Assembly (NCBI RefSeq): GCF_003334385.1
Contig: NZ_QOWN01000022.1
From: Escherichia coli
GTDB lineage: Bacteria; Pseudomonadota; Gammaproteobacteria; Enterobacterales; Enterobacteriaceae
Length of the DNA: 64,000 bases
Reading direction: 5' to 3' (one strand)
Shown here: piece by piece, positions 1 to 9,789 of the stretch
Position numbering within the stretch: position 1 is the stretch's first letter
Layout of the letters: every line of letters begins with the position of its first letter
The notes under the pieces: model-generated
What the model saw: only the letters and a program-made list of their open reading frames with translations
Told to the model about the DNA's origin: nothing
The model's database searches: none
Position numbers and translations under genes: made by a program

Positions 1-84
1 TTATCGTGAGAGTAATTCATCGGCACGTTAAATCATATCAGGCGTAATACCACAACCCTTAAGTTAGCGCTTATGGGCGCTTTT

Positions 85-123
85 CCCCTCACCCTAACCC
101 TCTCCCCAGAGGGGCGAGGGGAC
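85..123. repeat. GC-rich imperfect palindromic intergenic repeat (boxC-like)
   Basis: cccctcaccctaaccctctcccc-agag-gggcgaggggac: a C-rich arm followed by a complementary G-rich arm. A related sequence recurs at 275-300 at the ycjD stop. The family name is from memory only. Confidence 0.5.
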
Positions 124-184
124 CGTATTGTGCAAATATTGTTACCCCAGCAACAAACAGGCTCATACAGCCCCTAACCCTTTC

Positions 185-262
185 ATGGCGATGGCTGGGA
201 CGGTTCAGACCTTGCCGAATATTCTCCAGCACCGTCTCCATGTTTTCACCACAACAGCTATT
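185..262 (-). pseudogene. C-terminal relic of a second DUF559 (YcjD-like) gene
   Basis: Minus-strand translation NSCCGENMETVLENIRQGLNRPSHRH aligns with the YcjD C-terminus NEIDCNEETVLENILQELNRRSPSP. A 23-nt exact repeat gaatattctccagcaccgtctcc occurs at 217-239 and 323-345. No start codon or N-terminal part is present. Confidence 0.5.
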
Positions 263-287
263 CGGCTCGGTCTGCCCCCTCGCTCTT

Positions 288-641
288 TCAGGGAGAGGGT
301 GACCGGCGGTTCAGTTCCTGCAGAATATTCTCCAGCACCGTCTCCTCATTACAATCAATCTCGTTATTCCAGAAACGCAGCACGGTCCAGCCCTGCGACT
401 CAAGCCAGCTAGTGCGCCTGGAATCATAGGCAACTGCTAAATCATGCTGCCCACCATCCAGCTCAACGACTACACGCGCCGAGCAGCAAGCAAAATCGAG
501 AATGTAGCTCCCCACTGGATGTTGACGGCGAAATTTGAAATCACTAAAACGTCGGCTGCGAAGATATCGCCAGAGCTTTCGTTCCTGCAAAGTGAGATTG
601 CGTCTTAAATCACGCGCATTTGATTTAATTTTATCTATCAC
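288..641 (-). CDS. ycjD: DUF559 (Vsr-like endonuclease fold) protein YcjD, 117 aa, GTG start
   Basis: Intact 117-aa ORF, MIDKIKSNARDLRRNLTLQERKLW..., recognised as K-12 YcjD. The start codon is RC of cac at 639-641. Confidence 0.9.
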   Translation of the reverse strand: MIDKIKSNARDLRRNLTLQERKLWRYLRSRRFSDFKFRRQHPVGSYILDFACCSARVVVELDGGQHDLAVAYDSRRTSWLESQGWTVLRFWNNEIDCNEETVLENILQELNRRSPSP

Positions 642-681
642 CTCATTCTGACAAGATTTAATCTTTTGTCAGAATGAGGTG
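639..681. other. Perfect 16-bp inverted repeat (stem-loop) between the sapF stop and the ycjD start
   Basis: cacctcattctgacaa (639-654), an 11-nt loop, then ttgtcagaatgaggtg (666-681). The arms are exact reverse complements. The left arm contains the ycjD GTG. Confidence 0.85.
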
Positions 682-708
682 AATAATCTGGAAGGAGGAT
701 TCAGAAAA

Positions 709-1515
709 TTAGCGATCTTTACGCCACGCATCCGCCGTCAATGCCTCGCCAAAATGACCGGCAATCAGCCGTTTGGTGAGTTCATGCAGCGGCGATGCCA
801 GCACATCCGCGGTGCTGCCTCGCTCGACAACCTCGCCCTGATGCATCACCAGCACCTGGTCGCTAATGTGCTTCATCATTCCGATATGCTGGGTAACATA
901 AATATACGAAATGCCCTGTTTTTCCTGTAATTCCAGCATCAGATTAATCAACTGCGAACGCATCGACATATCCAGTGAAGCGAGGGCTTCATCGGCAATA
1001 ATGACTTTTGGGCGCAATATCAGCGCGCGCGCCAGACCCAGACGCTGTTTTTGTCCGGGTGCCAACATATGCGGATAGTAACTGACGTGATCCGGTAGCA
1101 GCCCAACCATACGCATCGTTTCAATAATCTGTTTGCGACGCTGTTCCGGTTCCAGGTCGGTGTTCAGGCGCAGTGGAAAATCCAGAATTTGCGAGATACG
1201 TTGACGGGGATTCAACGAGGTCGAAGGATCCTGAAAAATCATGCGAATACGCTGACTGCGGAAGGAATAATCGCCAAAATGCAGTGGATGATCGTCAATC
1301 AATAACTCGCCGCTGGTAGGCTCTATCATTCCCGCCAGCATTTTTGCCAGCGTGGATTTACCCGAACCATTCTCGCCAATAATCGCCAGTGTCTGGCCTT
1401 CACGTAGCGTAAAGCTCAAGGGTTTTACCGCTTCTACGGTCTGACGACGAAACCAGCCGGTCCGGTAGCGGAACGTTTTACTTAAATTACGCACTTCAAG
1501 CAGCGTTTCGATCAT
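709..1515 (-). CDS. sapF: ABC transporter ATP-binding protein SapF, 268 aa
   Basis: Walker A GENGSGKST, signature-like LAPGQKQRLGLARA, Walker B VIIADEALASLD. There is a 1-nt gap to sapD. Confidence 0.95.
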   Translation of the reverse strand: MIETLLEVRNLSKTFRYRTGWFRRQTVEAVKPLSFTLREGQTLAIIGENGSGKSTLAKMLAGMIEPTSGELLIDDHPLHFGDYSFRSQRIRMIFQDPSTSLNPRQRISQILDFPLRLNTDLEPEQRRKQIIETMRMVGLLPDHVSYYPHMLAPGQKQRLGLARALILRPKVIIADEALASLDMSMRSQLINLMLELQEKQGISYIYVTQHIGMMKHISDQVLVMHQGEVVERGSTADVLASPLHELTKRLIAGHFGEALTADAWRKDR

Positions 1516-1516
1516 C

Positions 1517-2509
1517 TCACTCTTTCTCCATGTTCAGCGGGAAATGACAGGCATAGAGATGATTTTTCGCCCCCGTCAAACGTGGCGTCACAATGCATTC
1601 TCGTTGTGCATACGGGCAACGTGGCCCCAGACGACAACCAATCGGTAACTGTTCCAGCAGTGGGATAGCGCCGGGCAGCGTATTGAGGCGACTTTTATGC
1701 GGCATCGCGCTGCCGAAGTCTGGTATCGCGCGGATCAGCGCCTGGGTATAAGGATGATGTGGCATCGTCACCAACTCCTTACTCGGCGCGGTTTCCACTG
1801 TTTGACCGCAGTAAAGCACGTTAATTTTATCCGCCCATTGGCTAAGCATTTGTAAGTCATGGCTGATAAGCAAAATAGTGGTATTGCTGTTTTGGTTGAG
1901 ACGCGTCAGCAGGCGAAAGATTTGCGCCTGGGTTGTTGGCTCCATTGAGTTGGTCGGTTCGTCAGCAATCAGCAGACGCGGTTGATTCGCCAGTGCAATG
2001 GCTATCATCACTTTCTGACATTCACCTTCGGTCAACTCATAGGGAAAACTGCGCATCGCATCTTTGTGATCTTTAATCCCCACGCGGTGCAGCAGTTCAA
2101 TGGCACGGCGTTTGCGCCAGCCAAAACGCTGCCACCAACGGCCTTTATAGGTCCAGGCTGGGATGTTTTGCATCAACTGGCGGCCCACACGTTCTGAAGG
2201 GTCAAGACACGACTGCGGTTCCTGGAAAATCATCGACACGTTATGGCCAACCAGTTTGCGCCGTTCGCGTGCGGAGAGACGCAGCAAATCGATATCATCA
2301 AAACGCATACGGTCAGCAGTAACACGCCAGTTATCTTTATTCACCCCACAAATCGCTTTCGCAATCAAACTCTTGCCGGAACCGGATTCACCAACAAGAC
2401 CGCGGATTTCACCTTCGGTTAAGGTCATACTTACCCGGTCGACGGCTTTAACCCACTCATCACCGGTTTTAAATTCAATGGTCAGGTTACGAATATCGAG
2501 TAATGGCAT
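1517..2509 (-). CDS. sapD: ABC transporter ATP-binding protein SapD, 330 aa
   Basis: Walker [10 protein letters not shown], Walker [13 protein letters not shown], and an Opp/Dpp-type C-terminal extension. Its first nt is shared with the last nt of sapC. Confidence 0.95.
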
Positions 2510-3399
2510 TATTCCACCCCCGCAATAATCGCACGACGAACGCCATCGCCAAGGAGGTTAACCAACAACACGCTAATCATAATTGCCGCACCTGGCAGCA
2601 TGACAGTCCACGGGGCGACATAAATCAGTTCCAGCGCATCACCGAGCATCGCTCCCCATTCAGGCGAGGGGAGTTGTGCGCCGAGATCGAGAAAGCCCAG
2701 CGCGGCGATATCGAGAATTGCCATCGACAGTGCGCGGGTGATCTCGGTGACCAGCCCGGCGGTGATGTTTGGCATCACAGCAAACCAGAGAATATTCAGC
2801 GTTGATGCGCCATCCAGACGGGCGGCGATAACGTACTCTTTTTCCAGTTCGTCATGCACCATGCTGTAAATCGAACGTACCATACGCGGCAGCAATGCCA
2901 GCCAGACAGCAAACATAGCGTGGGACAAACTCGGTCCGGCAAACGCTACAACGATAATTGCCAACAGCAGCGAAGGGATCGCCAGTAAGGTATCCAGAAT
3001 ATGGTTAAGCACCGCTGAGCGGAGGCCGTGTGTCGCCCCGGCGAAGGTGCCCAGTACCAGGCCACAGATCGTCGCGGCAAGCGTCACCACAAATGCGCCA
3101 CCCACGGTTGGCGCAGCTCCGCTCAGTAAACGGCTTAAAACATCGCGTCCGAGGTCGTCAGTCCCCAGGAAGAAAGAAACTTCGCCATAGCGCGACCATG
3201 ACGGCGGCAATAATTGATAACCGAGAAATTGCTGGTCGATGCCGTAAGGCGCAAACCAGCCGCCAAAAATACACAGTACAGCCAGCCCCGCGCAGCCGTA
3301 CAGGCCGACCATCGCAGAGGCGTCACTATAAAATTTGCGCCAGGCGGTACGCAGCGTGCCCGGCGGGCGCTTTTCGCTGTATACGCTATCGTAAGGCAT
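2509..3399 (-). CDS. sapC: ABC transporter permease SapC, 296 aa
   Basis: Polytopic hydrophobic ORF of the Dpp/Opp permease type. It overlaps sapB by 14 nt. Confidence 0.95.
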
Positions 3400-4351
3400 A
3401 CCATTCCTTATGTTTCAGAGGGTTAGCCATGGCACCCAAAATATCAGAAATCACGTTAACAATAATGACCAGTGAGCCACACACCATCACTCCGGCGGAA
3501 ATGGCTGCGTAATCCTGCTGGCGGATGGCGTTAATTAACCAGCGCCCTAAACCCGGCCAGCTAAAAACCATTTCGGTGATCATCGCCAGCGTCAGCATGG
3601 TGGAAAACTGTAAGCCCAGGCGAGGAATAACCGGCGGTAACGCGTTATGCAGAACGTGGCGACGCAAAATAGTAAAGCGCGACAAACCGCGGGTCGCCGC
3701 CGCTTTTACATAGTTCTGGTCATACACTTCGATAGTGCTGATACGCATCAGGCGGATCACTTCAGTTGTTGGCGCAACCGACAGGGTGATCACGGGCAAT
3801 ATCATATGGCGGATTGCGCTCATGATCATTTCATCCCGCCATGGTGAGTCCGAAAGCCAGGCATCAATCAACGCAAAACCGGTAATCGGTTTCACTTCGT
3901 AGAGCAGATCGAAACGCCCTGAAACGGGCAACCAACCTAGCGTGAGTGAACAAAACAGCGTCAACAGAAGCGCCAGCCAGAACACCGGGATTGAAAAGCC
4001 CAGTAAGGCGATGGCGTTGATCAAGTTATCCTGCCACTTATGGCTCGTAATCCCGGCAATCATCCCCACGGGGATGCCAACAATCAGCGCAAAACCGAAG
4101 GCGAGGATGCACAGTTCCATCGTCGCCGGGAAGACCTCTTTTAACTGTTCGGCAATCGGTTGACCGTTAATGCTGGAAACACCAAAATCCCAGTGGATCA
4201 GGCCGTTAAACCAGAACACCCAGGCATTCCACAGTGACGCGCCTTGTAACGGCGCATGAGGGGTGAAATAGCTCAAGCTGAAGCCAACGAAGGTCAGCAG
4301 GAACAAGGTGACAATCAATAACAAAATGCGGCGTAAGGTGAAGATAATCAT
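3386..4351 (-). CDS. sapB: ABC transporter permease SapB, 321 aa
   Basis: Polytopic hydrophobic ORF. It overlaps the sapA stop by 4 nt. Confidence 0.95.
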
Positions 4352-5991
4352 GGTTTTTTCAGCTCATCCTGTTTCTCGCGATACACCCCAGCAAAGGAGG
4401 CGTTACCAAACGGGCTAAGTACCAGACCTTTGATATCGTACCGATAGGCCTGCAAACGCAATGACGACGCCAGCGGCAAAATGGGCAATTCCTGCGCCAG
4501 AATACTCTGCGCTTCGTCATAGGCTTCAATACGCGCCGCCAGCTGCTGCGAAGAGAGCGCCTTACGCAATACGCTGTCGAATTTCGGATCGCACCAGTGG
4601 GCGAGGTTGGTCTGCGAATGAATTGCCGCGCAGCTCAGTAACGGACGGAAGAAACTGTCCGGGTCGTTACTGTCCGTCGCCCAACCGGATAACGTCAGAT
4701 CATGGCTCATATCCATCAACCGCGCCTCCTGAAAGCGACCTTCTACCGGCACAATCACCACTTTTACGCCAACCTGCGCCATATCCGCCTGAATCAGTTC
4801 GGCAGTTTTCAGTGGACTGGGGTTCCACGCCTGCGAACGTGTGGGCACCCACAGTTTCAGCGTTAAATTTTCCAGCCCCAACGACTTCAACTGTTCGCGC
4901 GATTTCGCCGGATTGTATTCAGTAATTTTAGCCTCGTTGTCATAGGCCCACGAGGCGCGCGGTAAAATAGAGGCCGCCGTTTCAGCCGTACCATAATAGA
5001 TGGATTGCATCAGGCGCTGGTTATTAATCGCCAGTGCCAGCGCATGGCGGACAGCGGGATTATTTAGCGGCGGTTTGGCGGTGTTAAATGCCAGATAGGC
5101 GACGTTCATCCCAGGACGCAGCGTTAAACGCAAGCGCGGGTCGTCACGCAAAATGGATAGCTGGCTGGCAGCAGGCCAGGCCAGAACGTCGCATTCCCCG
5201 GTCAGGAGTTTCGACAGACGTCCGGTGCCGCCGGAGCCTAAATCCACCACTACCTGCGGCATTAACGGTTTACCGCGCCAGAAGTCATCATGACGTTGTA
5301 GGCGAATAAATTGCCCGGCGCGGTATTCCGACAACTGATACGGACCGGTGCCGACCGGTTGACGGTCGAGTTGCTCCTGGCGATCTTCTTTCTCTAACTT
5401 CCGGGCATATTCTGCCGACATGACCGAAGCATAATGGGTTGCGAGGTGCCACAAAAAAGAAGCATCCGGCTGGGCGAGTCGGAACTCAACGGTATGATTA
5501 TCCAGTTTGCGGACGCTTTTCACGTTATCGGCAAATTGCAGGCTGTCGAAGTAGGGGAAGTTGCTGCCGTTGACGTTATGCCACGGGTTGTTGCGGTCAA
5601 AAATTCGCTGGAAGGTAAACACCACATCGTCGGCATTCATTTTACGAGTGGGAGTAAACCAGTCGGTTTTTTGAAACGGAACATCGCGACGCAGGTGGAA
5701 GCGATAGGTCGCGCCGTTGTCGAGTACTTCCCAGCTTTCGGCAAGTTCCGGCATCAGGCGATAGGTATAGGGATCGACATCCAGCAGTCGATCATAAAAC
5801 TGGGCGGCAAGGGTATCGACAATTAACCCACTGCTCGCTTTGGATGGGTTAAAGGTGTTGACTTGCCCGCTGACGCAATAGACAAAACCGCTGTCGCGGA
5901 TATCAGCATGCGGGGGAGATTCAGGCGCGGCGATTGCCTGACCACTCACAAGTCCAGCAATCACCAAAAGAGACGATAATACCTGGCGCAT
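4348..5991 (-). CDS. sapA: Periplasmic family-5 solute-binding protein SapA, 547 aa
   Basis: N-terminal signal peptide [21 protein letters not shown]. It has the length and sequence of an Opp/Dpp-type binding protein and is the first gene of the sapABCDF operon. Confidence 0.95.
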
Positions 5992-6239
5992 AATATTAAG
6001 GGATTTTATGTAAAGAGGCTATCTTACTAATATTTAATGACATTTGCCATTACCGTTTGTGTTCAGGGGTCGTAATGAGGGCCGTGTGGTTGGTCGTTGA
6101 ACAGGTGACGTCGCCATCTGTTCAACATTCGTACCCGTGATTTCTCTATAACTATAACTCACAGAACAACTTAGCGAGGAGCAGAGCGGTACGATCGTGA
6201 GAAACCCATTAAAGCACGCTGCAGTGCGTGTCATTGTTA

Positions 6240-6270
6240 GCCAGATGCGGCGTGAACGCTTTATCCGGAC
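6240..6270. repeat. REP (repetitive extragenic palindrome) unit, degenerate
   Basis: gccagatgcggcgtgaacgctttatccggac matches the GCCGGATGCGGCGTGAACGCCTTATCCGGC-type REP consensus with a few mismatches. Confidence 0.65.
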
Positions 6271-6303
6271 AACGATACTGACCGATCGTCTGCAATTAAA
6301 TCA

Positions 6304-6549
6304 TTACTCATTACCCCATTGATTCAAAAACTCTGCGATCTCATCAATGCGTACGGGATTAATCCCCGCTTCAGCAGCCATTTCATGTTGGGCTTCTTCG
6401 CTGATCTCTTCATTGTTCATCAAACGGGTGAGCAGTAACTGGAAGTAGTGGGCCAGCGGTGTGCGTTCAGCCTCTGCGACAGGCTCTGCGCATTCGGTCG
6501 CGTACTCATCGGCAATATCAAAATATTTTAGCGGGATATCGTGGTTCAT
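6304..6549 (-). CDS. ymjA: Small conserved protein YmjA (DUF2543), 81 aa
   Basis: Intact 81-aa acidic [22 protein letters not shown]..., recognised as K-12 YmjA. Confidence 0.85.
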
Positions 6550-6682
6550 TATTTGCCCCTGGGGTTAATGCGCTAAGCATAAGGGCGGATGATAGCACTC
6601 GTGATCCGGGTCATACATCTTTTTATAGTTAATGGCGCGGCGCGTTACCCTCAGGCAGGATAATGCGCCGCGCATCCGACTA

Positions 6683-8068
6683 TTACGTTTCACTCACCGG
6701 CGTTCTGTCACCATCATACAACGGCACTTTGCGATAGCGGCGGATCAGATACCATAAATATGCGCCGCCTAACGAAGCCCATACCAGACCGAGTGTCAGT
6801 GACGTTGACTCGAGGTTAACCCACAGCACACCCACCGTCAGCGCGCCAACCAGCGGCATCAGCAAATAGTGGAAGTGATCCTTCCAGCTTTTATTCATTC
6901 CTTTACGCCGCCAGAAATGATTAAACACCGACAGATTCACGAAGGTAAACGCCACCAGAGCACCGAAGTTAATTAACGCTGTGGCGGTAACTAAATCGAA
7001 GAACAGCGCCGACAACGCGACAATCCCGACCATAATGACGTTGAGTGCCGGAGTCCGCCATTTTGGGTGCACATAGCCAAACACGCGCTCCGGAAACACA
7101 TTGTCACGCCCCATCACATACAGCAGACGCGACACGCTGGCATGTGAAGCCAGGCCAGAGGCTAACGTGTTCACAAACGTGGTGCAGAGGAAAATCGACT
7201 GGAAGAGCTTGCCGCCGACGTACAGCGCAATTTCAGGCAGTGCGGCATCCGGATCTTTAAAGCGGCTGATATCGGGAAAGAACAGCTGCATAAAGAACGA
7301 CGCCGCGATAAAGATAACGCCACCGTAGACCGCCGTCAGGAAGATGGCTTTCGGGATCACGCGTGCGGCGTCCGGCGTCTCTTCCGAAAGCGTGGTCACC
7401 GCATCGAAACCGAGGAAGGAGAAACAGACAATCGTCGCCCCGGTAATAATCGGGATCAGGTGCGCGTTCTCGCTGATAAACGGCTGAAGTGACCAGACGG
7501 TGCCAACGCCTTCTCCTTTATGCAGTCCCTGAACTACCAGGAAGATAAACACCACCATGATGGAGATTTGCACCAGTACAAACAGGGTATTGAAGTTAGC
7601 GACCAGGTTGACGCTCTTCAGATTCGCGGCGGTTAAAATGGCGACGAAGGTTACCACCCACACCCACGGCGGCACTTCCGGGAAGAGGGCGGAGAGATAG
7701 ATTTTCGCCAACAAGACGTTAATCATCGGCAAAAAGAGATAATCCAGCAGCGATGACCAGCCGACCATAAATCCGACGTGCGGGTTAATCGACTTTTGCG
7801 CGTAGGTATAGGCCGAACCGGCCTCCGGAAACTGGCGAACCAGTTTGCCGTAGCTGATAGCGGTAAACAGCACACCCGCCAGCGCCAGCAAATAGGACGC
7901 CGGAACGTGACCGTCGCTAATGCCGGAGACAATACCAAAAGTATCAAATACGGTCATCGGCGTGAGATAGGCCAGACCCATCATCACCACCTGCCACAAT
8001 TTCAGTGATTTTCGCAGACGGGTTTTGCCGGGTTGCGCAGCAATATTCAGTGGTGAATTAATAGCCAT
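6683..8068 (-). CDS. puuP: Putrescine importer PuuP (APC family), 461 aa
   Basis: 12-TM amino acid/polyamine permease ORF. The start was set at the ATG (RC cat 8066-8068) giving [15 protein letters not shown]. The track ORF extends 18 codons further upstream. Confidence 0.93.
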
Positions 8069-8356
8069 AATTGCTGCCTCCCCTGCGTAATAAGGTTTGC
8101 GGTCGTGTCGACCTGAAATCAAACCTGTTTAGCAAGGGAAGCAAAGGGGGCGGAGTCCAGTCAGTAGCAGGAGGGGCGCATACGCAGCCTCCCTCGCCAT
8201 GCGGGGATTTAATCATCGGCATCATCTCATTTCCTCGTCACAGTCTTAATCGTTAACGGAAGCCCGTTGCCGCCCGCGCTCCATAACGCGACATCCGGGA
8301 AATGTCTGGATTACCAGCAAATGTCAGGCCTGGCTCCGCTCAGGCCGATGAAACAA

Positions 8357-8368
8357 CCCCGCAAGGGG
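8357..8368 (-). terminator. Short GC stem-loop just after the puuA stop (possible attenuator between puuA and puuP)
   Basis: ccccgcaagggg (4-bp stem, 4-nt loop) lies 3 nt downstream of the puuA stop. On the minus strand it is followed by ttgttt. It is weak and would have to allow readthrough to puuP. Confidence 0.35.
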
Positions 8369-8370
8369 TA

Positions 8371-9789
8371 TTACGCGTTTTTCAACATCCACTCAATTTC
8401 TGTTTCTGTGATGAGGCGCTCAAACTGCAACAGCTCATCATTTTTACAGGCGTGATAGACATGGCAGAAGCGTTCGCCTAAATAGCGGCGCAGGTGATCA
8501 TTCTCGATAAACTCACCCAGGGCATCGCTCTGGCGAATCGGAAAGGGTAAGCCTTCCTGTTCCAGCCCGTTGCCTTCGACTTCTTCCTGCAACGGCAGCT
8601 CGTTATCAAGGCCATGCAAAATACCGGCAAAAATCGCTGCCATCACCAGATATGGGTTGGCATCGGCACCCGCCACGCGATATTCCACGCGGTGATTATG
8701 ACGGTCGCCGCACGGAATACGCAGGGCGACGGTGCGGTTGTTATGGCCCCACGACGCCTGCGTCGGCACATACATTCCCGGCTGGAAGCGGCGATACGAG
8801 TTCACGTTTGGTGCCAGCAACGCCATCGACGACGGCATCAGGTCAATCATCCCGGCGAGCATCTTTTTCAGCAGCGGCGAATCTTCGCCTTCCGCGTCAG
8901 AAAGCACGTTCTCGCCACGATTATTTTGCATACTGATATGGATATGCATTCCGCTGCCCGCGTGCTCTTCATACGGCTTCGCCATAAAAGTGGCGTGCAT
9001 CTTATGCTTTTCTGCCATCAGACGCACCAGGCGTTTTAGTGCCAGCGCATCATCGCAGGCTTCCAGCACGTTATCAGTATGGTAAAGGTTGATTTCAAAC
9101 TGACCCGGCGAGGCCTCAGCGACCGCGCCATCTGCCGGAATCAGCTGTAACTGCGCCAGTTCATCAATATCATTGAGCACGTCGGCGAAGTGGTTGAGGT
9201 TATCAACGGAGTAAACCTGGCTTTGTGTATTGCGGTCATCGGTGCCAGGCGCGCAGGGCGGTTGCAGATACCCTTCAGCGTCGCGCTGGCGATCCAGTAA
9301 ATAGAACTCCAGCTCTACCGCTACGACCGGGAACAATCCGCGCTGGCGCAGCTGCTGCCACAGGCGGTTAAGAACGTTCCGCGGCTCAACGTCAAAGGGA
9401 GCGCCATCTTCATCGACCATGGTCAGGAGCATCTGACCGATAAACTCTGGATCGGCGGCAGAAGGAGTTAAGGAACCGAGAACAGGAACACAGGTACGAT
9501 CCGGCTCGCCCATTTCCTGACCCAGACCTGCTTCTTCTACTACGTTGCCCAGAATATCCATTGCAAATACCGAGGCCGGGAAATAACACCCTTTCTCGAG
9601 CTTCTTCAGGCTTGAAACAGGAATACGCTTTCCACGGAAGCAACCATTTAAATCGGTAAGTAAAACATCAACATATTGCGTATTCGGGTAGCGCTCCAGG
9701 TAGCGTTTCACTTCCTGCGTAAAGGCGCTACCCCGCCTCTCTTCTGACTGCTGAACAAAGTTCTCTACTTCAACGATATTGGTTTCCAT
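8371..9789 (-). CDS. puuA: Glutamate-putrescine ligase PuuA (glutamine synthetase family), 472 aa
   Basis: GS-family ORF. The start is at the ATG 9787-9789 giving METNIVEVENFVQQSEE. The track ORF has 26 extra upstream codons. Confidence 0.95.
   Translation of the reverse strand: METNIVEVENFVQQSEERRGSAFTQEVKRYLERYPNTQYVDVLLTDLNGCFRGKRIPVSSLKKLEKGCYFPASVFAMDILGNVVEEAGLGQEMGEPDRTCVPVLGSLTPSAADPEFIGQMLLTMVDEDGAPFDVEPRNVLNRLWQQLRQRGLFPVVAVELEFYLLDRQRDAEGYLQPPCAPGTDDRNTQSQVYSVDNLNHFADVLNDIDELAQLQLIPADGAVAEASPGQFEINLYHTDNVLEACDDALALKRLVRLMAEKHKMHATFMAKPYEEHAGSGMHIHISMQNNRGENVLSDAEGEDSPLLKKMLAGMIDLMPSSMALLAPNVNSYRRFQPGMYVPTQASWGHNNRTVALRIPCGDRHNHRVEYRVAGADANPYLVMAAIFAGILHGLDNELPLQEEVEGNGLEQEGLPFPIRQSDALGEFIENDHLRRYLGERFCHVYHACKNDELLQFERLITETEIEWMLKNA

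Follow-up and report, generated by a model that had tools for sequence, protein, structure and literature searches.

The DNA considered here, a stretch of 64,000 nucleotides (nt) of Escherichia coli contig NZ_QOWN01000022.1 (assembly GCF_003334385.1; the window hereafter), carries on its minus strand the gene ycjD, which bears this name in the annotations of K-12 and strain 4/2-1 and encodes a small protein of the DUF559 family. The gene lies between sapF and fabI, the latter further downstream and outside the window, and the segment is identical to that of K-12 over 75-720 and to that of strain 4/2-1 over 1-720 (100% in both). The ycjD reading frame, whose product ends in ...NRRSPSP, runs into a GC-rich palindrome that holds the final codons and the TGA; a second, partial copy of the gene end follows (the relic), and beyond it lies another palindrome. 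The original prediction had read this arrangement as the 3′ end of ycjD duplicated in tandem, in part, and accompanied by a repeat family. We find that the duplication is real, that the palindromes are BoxC elements, and that YcjD-type genes are coupled to BoxC-type repeats well beyond E. coli.

The duplication is most conspicuous as a direct repeat of 39 nt (201-239 and 307-345; 35/39 identical, 90%) that includes a 23-nt exact core and is offset by 106 nt. The 39-nt repeat has no further copy in the window, and the 23-mer, GAATATTCTCCAGCACCGTCTCC, occurs there exactly twice even when three mismatches are allowed, against an expectation of zero from shuffled sequence; the exact repeat first noticed at 217-239 and 323-345 thus stands as described. 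The similarity extends over the whole period. When 345..240 is aligned with 239..134, 77 of 110 positions are identical, with a score of 80 as compared to −29 ± 9 in shuffles (about 11 standard deviations), and even the 67 nt beyond the 39-mer, taken alone, align at 42/71 with a score of 18 versus −26 ± 8 and a shuffle maximum of 2 (about 5.5 standard deviations). Because homology spans the entire 106-nt period, a unit of that length has genuinely been duplicated head to tail: the copies share their orientation, adjoin each other, and are homologous over the full period. Tandem Repeats Finder did not report the array at the E. coli locus, since the copies are too diverged. The relic is shorter than the roughly 25 codons proposed for it. 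Upstream of the 39-mer, homology between gene and relic is not demonstrable (12/24 nt; 2/8 residues, NSCCGENM versus NEIDCNEE), which removes the first 12 or so residues of the proposed match and leaves about 13 codons. These encode the conserved C-terminal helix of DUF559 proteins (...VLE.IL..L).

The palindromes at the locus had been rightly recognized; they belong, however, to the known BoxC/PIT/TMECO repeats and not to a new family. On the minus strand, 86-120 fits the pattern CCCTCNCCC-N3-6-GGGNGAGGG-N3-GGGNGAGGG exactly and is its sole match in the window, with none expected by chance. It is TMECO no. 9, a type A element with one mismatch at K-12 1351204-1351239 (Holder et al., 2015, Table 1; PMC4666352), and BoxC was first described at this very locus, in the 1992 sequence paper on envM (= fabI; Bergler, 1992, as cited in PMC4666352). 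At the ycjD stop codon, the element retains two of the three blocks in the window and so escapes the strict TMECO pattern. A complete BoxC, CCCTCACCCCAACCCTCTCCCTGAAAGGGCGAGGGGG, occupies the orthologous position in strains STN0717-11 and A287, in E. ruysiae, in Escherichia sp. E1V33, and in E. coli 2017-02-2CC, from which it follows that the element in the window is a truncated member. The truncation is a 12-nt in-frame deletion inside BoxC that turns a terminal SPSPQPSP into the SPSP of the K-12 type, and it is the same difference as the 12-nt longer ycjD 3′ end of sequence types (ST) 69 and 182 in the part of PMC12817139 that deals with the gene, where the open reading frame (ORF) is given as 354 nt.

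It follows that the SPSP tail is indeed encoded by the repeat element, together with the stop codon, the BoxC overlapping ycjD codons 113-117 and the stop; this runs contrary to the published rule that the motif is always intergenic and has no link to neighboring genes (Holder et al., 2015; PMC4666352). The suggestion that recombination had remodeled the C-terminus needs correction. A BoxC-encoded tail of the form PSPxPSP is common to Enterobacter, Kluyvera, Klebsiella, and other genera that lack the duplication, so the normal tail was not created by it; the K-12 type alone was shortened, by the 12-nt deletion. A palindrome does follow the gene copy. The one assigned to the relic, at 85-123, is a separate BoxC of type A in the opposite orientation; the relic's own BoxC, at about 170-200, is decayed here, better preserved in STN0717-11, and intact in E. 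ruysiae. At the RNA level, folding predicts pairing between the BoxC copies of opposite orientation, with the relic enclosed by them (z = −3.85). BoxC itself is dispersed, with a median of 18 places per E. coli genome when ycjD plus the type A element is the query, and the published BoxC/TMECO count for K-12 is 23.

Table 1. Features of the ycjD-BoxC segment and sequence types of the relic
Feature	Position in window	Strand	Basis and remarks
sapF	709-1515	minus	ORF list and annotation of K-12 and 4/2-1
ycjD leader, from sapF stop	642-708	minus	repeat search and comparison with homologue leaders
ycjD, 117 aa, DUF559 (Vsr-like PD-(D/E)XK)	288-641	minus	ORF list, Pfam, NCBIfam, PDB; stop 288-290
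Tandem unit copy 1	240-345	minus	ycjD codons 105-117 + stop, truncated BoxC, 34-nt spacer
39-nt repeat, gene copy (E-T-V-L-E-N-I-L-Q-E-L-N-R)	307-345	minus	exact 23-mer at 323-345
Truncated type-B-like BoxC	274-302	minus	encodes S-P-S-P, TGA in hairpin loop; orientation opposite to 85-121
Tandem unit copy 2 (relic)	134-239	minus	gene-end copy 201-239, decayed BoxC ~170-200, tail 134-169
Exact 23-mer, relic copy	217-239	minus	apparent lineage-specific gene-conversion patch
BoxC type A = TMECO no. 9, inverted partner of ycjD-stop BoxC	85-121	minus	published consensus and Table 1 of PMC4666352
Relic sequence, K-12 type (window)			GGAGACGGTGCTGGAGAATATTCGG
Relic sequence, B1/Shigella type			GTGACAGTTCTGGAGAATATTCGG; only 13 nt in a row identical to gene
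Relic sequence, ST69-type E. coli and E. ruysiae			GGCGGATGATGAAGAATATTCGG; one extra base, frame shifted

Comparison across strains, as the original prediction had proposed, reveals that the number of units varies, rarely within E. coli. One unit is present in Escherichia sp. E1V33 and E. coli 2017-02-2CC, two in the sampled ycjD-carrying E. coli including K-12, and three, with the same boundaries, in E. ruysiae, where Tandem Repeats Finder does report the array (period 119, 2.5 copies, 85% matches, score 418). Every E. coli and E. ruysiae unit opens at one identical base, between GAAAACAT and GGAG. The ycjD locus is present in 3378 of 5426 complete E. coli genomes, the remainder having the eefRABCD operon in its place, and all but about five of these 3378 keep the two-unit form. 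The copies do recombine with each other, as had been supposed. Strain G1/2 carries an exact one-unit deletion, an allele classed as a pseudogene by the Prokaryotic Genome Annotation Pipeline (PGAP), and unequal crossover has produced protein clusters that end in the relic-encoded ...VLENIRQGLN(R/H)PSHRH...: P0004 (23 members), P0012 (20 members, on a background different from that of P0004), P0022, and P0018, the last from Shigella dysenteriae. The recombinant ORF stays open for 147-148 codons. In E. coli ECGI0523 (CP178306.1), numerous one-base indels that set the locus apart from all other E. coli break the ycjD ORF; this looks like an assembly error and not biology.

The relic also has a history of its own. 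The relic units of E. coli and E. ruysiae share the diagnostic bases GAATATTCGGCAAGG where gene copies have GATTATTCTGCAGG; the first duplication is therefore older than the split of the two species, or the relic was exchanged between them. The relic falls within a 50-codon ORF at 89-241 of the window, yet its reading frame is not conserved between lineages. Within the 23-mer stretch it reads GTGACAGTTCTGGAGAATATTC in the B1/Shigella type and GGCGGATGATGAAGAATATTC in the ST69 type, and the K-12 type differs from the B1 type at three positions, all of them changed toward the gene copy. Three changes out of three in one direction point to a short patch of gene conversion, and the exact 23-mer therefore looks like a lineage-specific product of conversion between the copies. 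The patch is probably shared by about 1437 of the 3378 genomes, those with at least 99% identity to the window over 126-420.

Where did the relic come from? A sensitive search of the 5426 E. coli genomes with 126-420 returned no paralogue, no second DUF559 locus, and no dispersed source of the 39-mer. The relic does not derive from a specific paralogue, as had been considered; it is orthologous to the relics of other Escherichia. The same query finds at most two places per genome in the 3378 ycjD-positive genomes; the best listed place is at ycjD, and the second was taken, by inference and without a direct check, to be the offset match of gene end and relic at the same locus.

We consider it likely that the region is the BoxC cluster at the end of a ycjD cassette in which an ancestral tandem duplication left a decayed, functionless relic, with later interaction between the copies. 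The ycjD frame normally runs into a BoxC, so that the last residues and the stop lie inside the repeat, with a second, inverted BoxC coming next. Before E. coli and E. ruysiae diverged, a stretch of some 106-119 nt in their ancestor, comprising the last 13 ycjD codons, the BoxC at the stop, and about 34 nt of spacer, would have been duplicated head to tail, most plausibly through replication slippage or unequal exchange at the structure-forming BoxC. The downstream copy has decayed, with substitutions, a 13-nt deletion in its BoxC, and, in some lineages, a frameshift; in the K-12-like lineage a short conversion patch appears to have restored 23 nt of exact identity, and in rare isolates unequal crossover has removed one unit, giving a YcjD with a relic-encoded tail. 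Small intergenic rearrangements are concentrated at TMECO loci (Holder et al., 2015; PMC4666352), and the relic is most likely a functionless by-product of such BoxC-associated instability. Tandem units of BoxC hairpin plus spacer are also found just downstream of the ycjD homologues of Leclercia adecarboxylata (63 nt × 5; extracted locus 2366-2688) and of an Enterobacter metagenome-assembled genome (about 45 nt × 2), in both cases without gene sequence.

Several points weigh against this account. The duplication is old and the event itself is not observable, and no microhomology is demonstrable at the unit boundaries. The two single-unit genomes fit either an ancestral single unit or a secondary loss. 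The copies have diverged unevenly, being 90% identical over the leading 39 nt but only about 60% beyond them, so that an additional assumption, gene conversion or selection on the coding copy, is needed. Finally, the relic would be functionless only as judged from its decay and its frame changes.

The strongest alternative, which we nevertheless regard as unlikely, is that the relic is a leftover of an older resident ycjD cassette: another one would have arrived just upstream of it by homing, conversion, or allelic replacement, and the older gene would have been mostly deleted. Such a history would suit a locus that is a known replacement hot spot, holding either ycjD or the 8-kb eefRABCD operon in the relevant passages of PMC12817139, and a gene that behaves together with its BoxC pair as one indel unit at three enteric sites, the matching E. 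coli sites being empty; the strong divergence of the relic from the resident gene outside the conversion patch would also fit. It accords poorly with the exact start base and constant period shared by all E. coli units and the three of E. ruysiae, a pattern expected from tandem amplification and not from independent insertions followed by deletions. Moreover, the spacer past the first unit is homologous to the tail past the second, and no relic of the 5′ part of the gene was seen.

We find it very improbable that the duplication is instead a functional switch through which recombination alternates YcjD C-termini or turns the gene off. Crossover alleles arose more than once, some occur in at least 20 deposited sequences, and their long open frame would be compatible with such a role; yet the two-unit arrangement is missing from only about 5 of 3378 complete genomes, deletion is irreversible, ST69-type E. 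coli and E. ruysiae have lost the frame of the relic, and the G1/2 allele is a pseudogene according to PGAP. That the 23-mer or 39-mer is a mere part of the dispersed BoxC repeat, unrelated to DUF559, was suggested by its directly adjoining BoxC in both copies and is refuted by the ceiling of two places per genome in the 3378 genomes (the second inferred to be the same locus), by the absence of a third match in the 64-kb window, by the flanks of other K-12 type B BoxC elements (the ends of argF and ilvC, and a different 13-nt sequence, GTGCGCGCTGATG), and by its coding for the conserved DUF559 helix.

The tandem duplication is ordinary in itself; the pairing of gene and repeat reaches well beyond this locus. 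YcjD is a clear member of its family, matching Pfam PF04480 (DUF559) with E = 1.4e-49 and 167 bits (cut-off 20.6), the NCBIfam equivalog PRK09767 with 267.8 bits (cut-off 218), and the solved homologue PDB 3HRL with E = 1e-27. A scan with YcjD of one genome per species gave 80 loci, 68 of them with an intact ORF of 100-200 codons. At least 95% of these 68 homologues keep D49, E60, D62, G63-H66, D73, R76, and R89-N92, among them the acidic and histidine residues E60, D62, and H66 (plus D49 and D73); D67 completes an EDxHD motif in YcjD itself, but its conservation across the homologues is below 95%. The motif was assigned from the literature, by way of PMC9403480 and PMC3424549, and not from a structural superposition, and the conserved residues are likely catalytic. 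PADLOC gave no defense-system match.

A BoxC-like hairpin, loosely defined by a C-rich arm of 9 nt and a G-rich arm complementary to it across a loop of 3-9 nt, occurs within −200 to +350 nt of 67 of the 68 homologous genes, and in 44 of 68 it falls over the last 60 nt of the ORF. The control, other intergenic segments of the same loci, has it in 2 of 48 (0.82 per kb vs. 3.5 per kb). The strict TMECO pattern with up to two substitutions, scanned over 283 kb of homologue loci, gave 105 matches, of which 34 fall in the 100 nt before the stop codon, 32 in the 200 nt that follow it, 15 immediately ahead of the start, and about four more than 600 nt away. These loci represent about 35 different genomic contexts, including, by reading of the translated flanks, acnD/prpF, hypD/hypE, metF/metH, and carA/carB. 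It is thus well supported, from comparison of genomes, that YcjD-type DUF559 genes and BoxC-type repeats travel together, which bears out for the YcjD subfamily what had been conjectured from this one locus. A search of the accessible literature found no paper linking the DUF559/YcjD family to BoxC repeats, and to that extent this near-universal coupling is undescribed.

The enteric homologues (Enterobacter, Leclercia, Kluyvera, Klebsiella, Phytobacter, Yokenella, and others) end in PSPRPSP, with a BoxC exactly over the stop codon and then an inverted type A partner. Identity across 23 enteric species amounts to 93% in the 38-nt BoxC at the stop as compared to 70% in the gene body, and the element is therefore conserved as DNA and not only as codons. 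The enteric cassette, consisting of a leader of about 75 nt, the gene, and the BoxC pair, sits at three chromosomal sites. Repeats lie on the 3′ side only, in the window and in all enteric loci examined. Inverted repeats flank the gene on both sides in Stenotrophomonas, Paraburkholderia, Rhodocyclaceae, alphaproteobacteria, and Picosynechococcus, and the two-sided layout recurs in Azospirillum and Neisseria gonorrhoeae. In the non-enteric proteobacteria, the 5′ element has the block order C-G-G and ends 5-25 nt before the ATG, and an inverted C-C-G element covers the C-terminal codons with tails such as SPSPPAPLPQGERG; several of these loci have the full composite unit on both sides of the gene. 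Picosynechococcus PCC 7002 has a different repeat sequence, with 5-nt blocks, in an identical three-block architecture, and all 23 repeats of a 50-kb stretch fall within 10 kb around the gene.

Some further features of these loci deserve mention. The repeats on the Picosynechococcus plasmid pAQ6 (18656-28800) form the sub-families CCCC-loop-GGGG-ATTTA-GGGG and CCCCC-loop-GGGGG-YYR-GGGGG; they cluster at the DUF559 gene inside a DUF499/DUF1156/helicase island of defense-like appearance, and several fall within annotated DUF1156 coding sequence. The 3HRL homologue of N. gonorrhoeae has direct copies of a repeat of about 100 nt on both sides, with a degenerate TMECO, CCCTCTCCCTGTGGGAAAGAGTTAGAGAGAGGG. 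Paraburkholderia, Stenotrophomonas, and Dyella, which belong to different proteobacterial classes, carry the DUF559 cassette at one shared place, apparently acnD/prpF of the methylcitrate operon as judged from translated flanks. Searches of plasmids and phages with YcjD returned almost only chromids or mislabeled chromosomes and no sign of plasmid or phage carriage; the multi-megabase “plasmid” records that match resemble chromosomes or chromids, the N. gonorrhoeae one measuring 2.17 Mb.

Two simple histories of gene and repeat were considered and rejected. Were the dispersed BoxC copies footprints of lost DUF559 cassettes, remnants of the gene might be sought beside them; none was seen at the K-12 type B loci inspected, namely two singles near yagA/yagE and argF, one after ilvC, and the hrpB-mrcB pair (positions 7547-7579, 360-392, and 348-432 in the extracted loci). 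The copies at argF and ilvC lie 13-22 nt past the stop codons, and those at ilvC and hrpB-mrcB share their 13-nt flank beyond the published 36-nt motif. The idea of BoxC as a pre-existing landing pad fared no better: neither BoxC nor ycjD occurs at E. coli hemW-yggM (the Enterobacter site) or pbp4B-yfeX (the Kluyvera/Klebsiella site), where there are just REP/BIME elements in one case and a simple terminator in the other.

Could the nuclease act on the repeat? YcjD-type nucleases may be the cognate enzymes of the three-block BoxC/TMECO repeats, gene and repeats together making up a selfish cassette comparable to RAYT with REP but based on a Vsr-like PD-(D/E)XK nuclease, an idea that we offer as tentative and for the present somewhat doubtful. 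The nuclease would then recognize or cut the structure-forming repeat, and this may drive its own spread, the spread of the repeat, or local instability in the form of tandem units, small deletions, and gene conversion. BoxC numbers do correlate with the gene, with 15-32 places in ycjD-positive and 1-20 in ycjD-negative E. coli, but the ranges overlap and the comparison is fully confounded with phylogeny. Published TMECO counts are 13-30, 1-2, 10-11, 12-15, and 6-7 across E. coli strain groups, which we take to be phylogroups A/B1/C, B2, E, D, and F, respectively; for Enterobacter they run from 1 to 143.

Three known systems invite comparison. Hoyne and Maher reportedly worked on the BoxC/PIT/TMECO repeats of E. 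coli in 2000 and 2002. The locus resembles that family in that one palindrome is its listed member no. 9 and the other a type-B-like member in other strains, as well as in the inverted pairing of A and B elements and the small deletions and rearrangements (PMC4666352). It departs from it in that the final codons and stop of a gene come from one of the copies, the family of that gene being repeat-coupled in many taxa; a tandem unit with coding sequence is not in the published description. REP/BIME (REPIN) elements and their RAYT genes offer a second parallel: short GC-rich palindromes dispersed between genes, a single-copy gene with family members adjoining, and, outside the enterics, inverted repeats on both sides of the DUF559 gene. 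Unlike RAYTs, which are HUH Y1 transposases, YcjD is a Vsr-like PD-(D/E)XK nuclease; moreover, the repeats of E. coli ycjD are confined to its 3′ side, and BoxC numbers track the presence of ycjD only loosely. The third parallel is with homing endonucleases of the Vsr/DUF559 clan, the EDxHD family, which may be free-standing or borne by introns or inteins (PMC3424549; PMC9403480). These share the fold clan, and the YcjD gene is likewise small and inserted between conserved housekeeping genes (sapF/fabI, hemW/yggM, pbp4B/yfeX, acnD/prpF, hypD/hypE, metF/metH). In contrast, ycjD has no intron or intein, and the empty E. coli sites orthologous to the Enterobacter and Kluyvera insertions make a comparison between species and not an occupied/empty pair within one.

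The immediate surroundings of ycjD vary as well. That ycjD and eefRABCD are alternative alleles between sapF and fabI is already published (PMC12817139); the locus treated there is the same, and the passages of that paper on ycjD do not tie the 12-nt difference to BoxC or describe the duplicated unit. In B2 and O157:H7 strains, the 8-kb TetR-RND-MFS operon eefRABCD replaces the whole ycjD-BoxC segment, with breakpoints at the sapF stop codon and about 120 nt upstream of fabI (E. coli ECONIH2, extracted locus 836-8852). Window 1-75 is the end of an IS186/IS421 element (IS4 family) that is absent from K-12 and inserted between fabI and the type A BoxC; its transposase gene, on the minus strand, has its start at base 20, its 11-bp target duplication GGCGCTTTTCC (76-86) is found at the other junction too in strain 4/2-1, and its target GGGGGGGCGCTTTTCCCC takes in the first C-block of BoxC. 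On the 5′ side, a perfect 17-bp inverted repeat (638-654 and 666-682) begins 27 nt past the sapF stop codon and overlaps the GTG start of ycjD. The leader motifs TTCTGAA-N6-TTCCAGA...ATTCTGACAA recur before ycjD homologues elsewhere on Kluyvera, Klebsiella, and Enterobacter chromosomes, and a hairpin resembling the one at the ycjD start (CACCTCATCCTGA...TCAGGATGAGGTG) follows sapF in B2 strains that lack ycjD. An Rfam scan of window 1-720 gave only chance microRNA-like matches on the leader hairpin.

The duplicated relic itself is probably ordinary and without function. The duplicated tail explains why ycjD varies in length by 12 nt, why databases contain a few longer “ycjD” proteins, and why one BoxC copy is found inside coding sequence, and taken alone it is a small structural curiosity; the wider gene-repeat pattern is worth more. 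Many bacteria, E. coli and Enterobacter among them, carry BoxC/PIT/TMECO repeats in abundance, a link between these repeats and genome instability has been drawn, and we know of no origin, mechanism of spread, or partner protein established for BoxC since 1992. A nuclease gene physically tied to such repeats in proteobacteria and one cyanobacterium is a concrete candidate partner that lends itself to work at the bench. The coupling suggests a function for the large DUF559 family and makes a long-orphan repeat family approachable by experiment.

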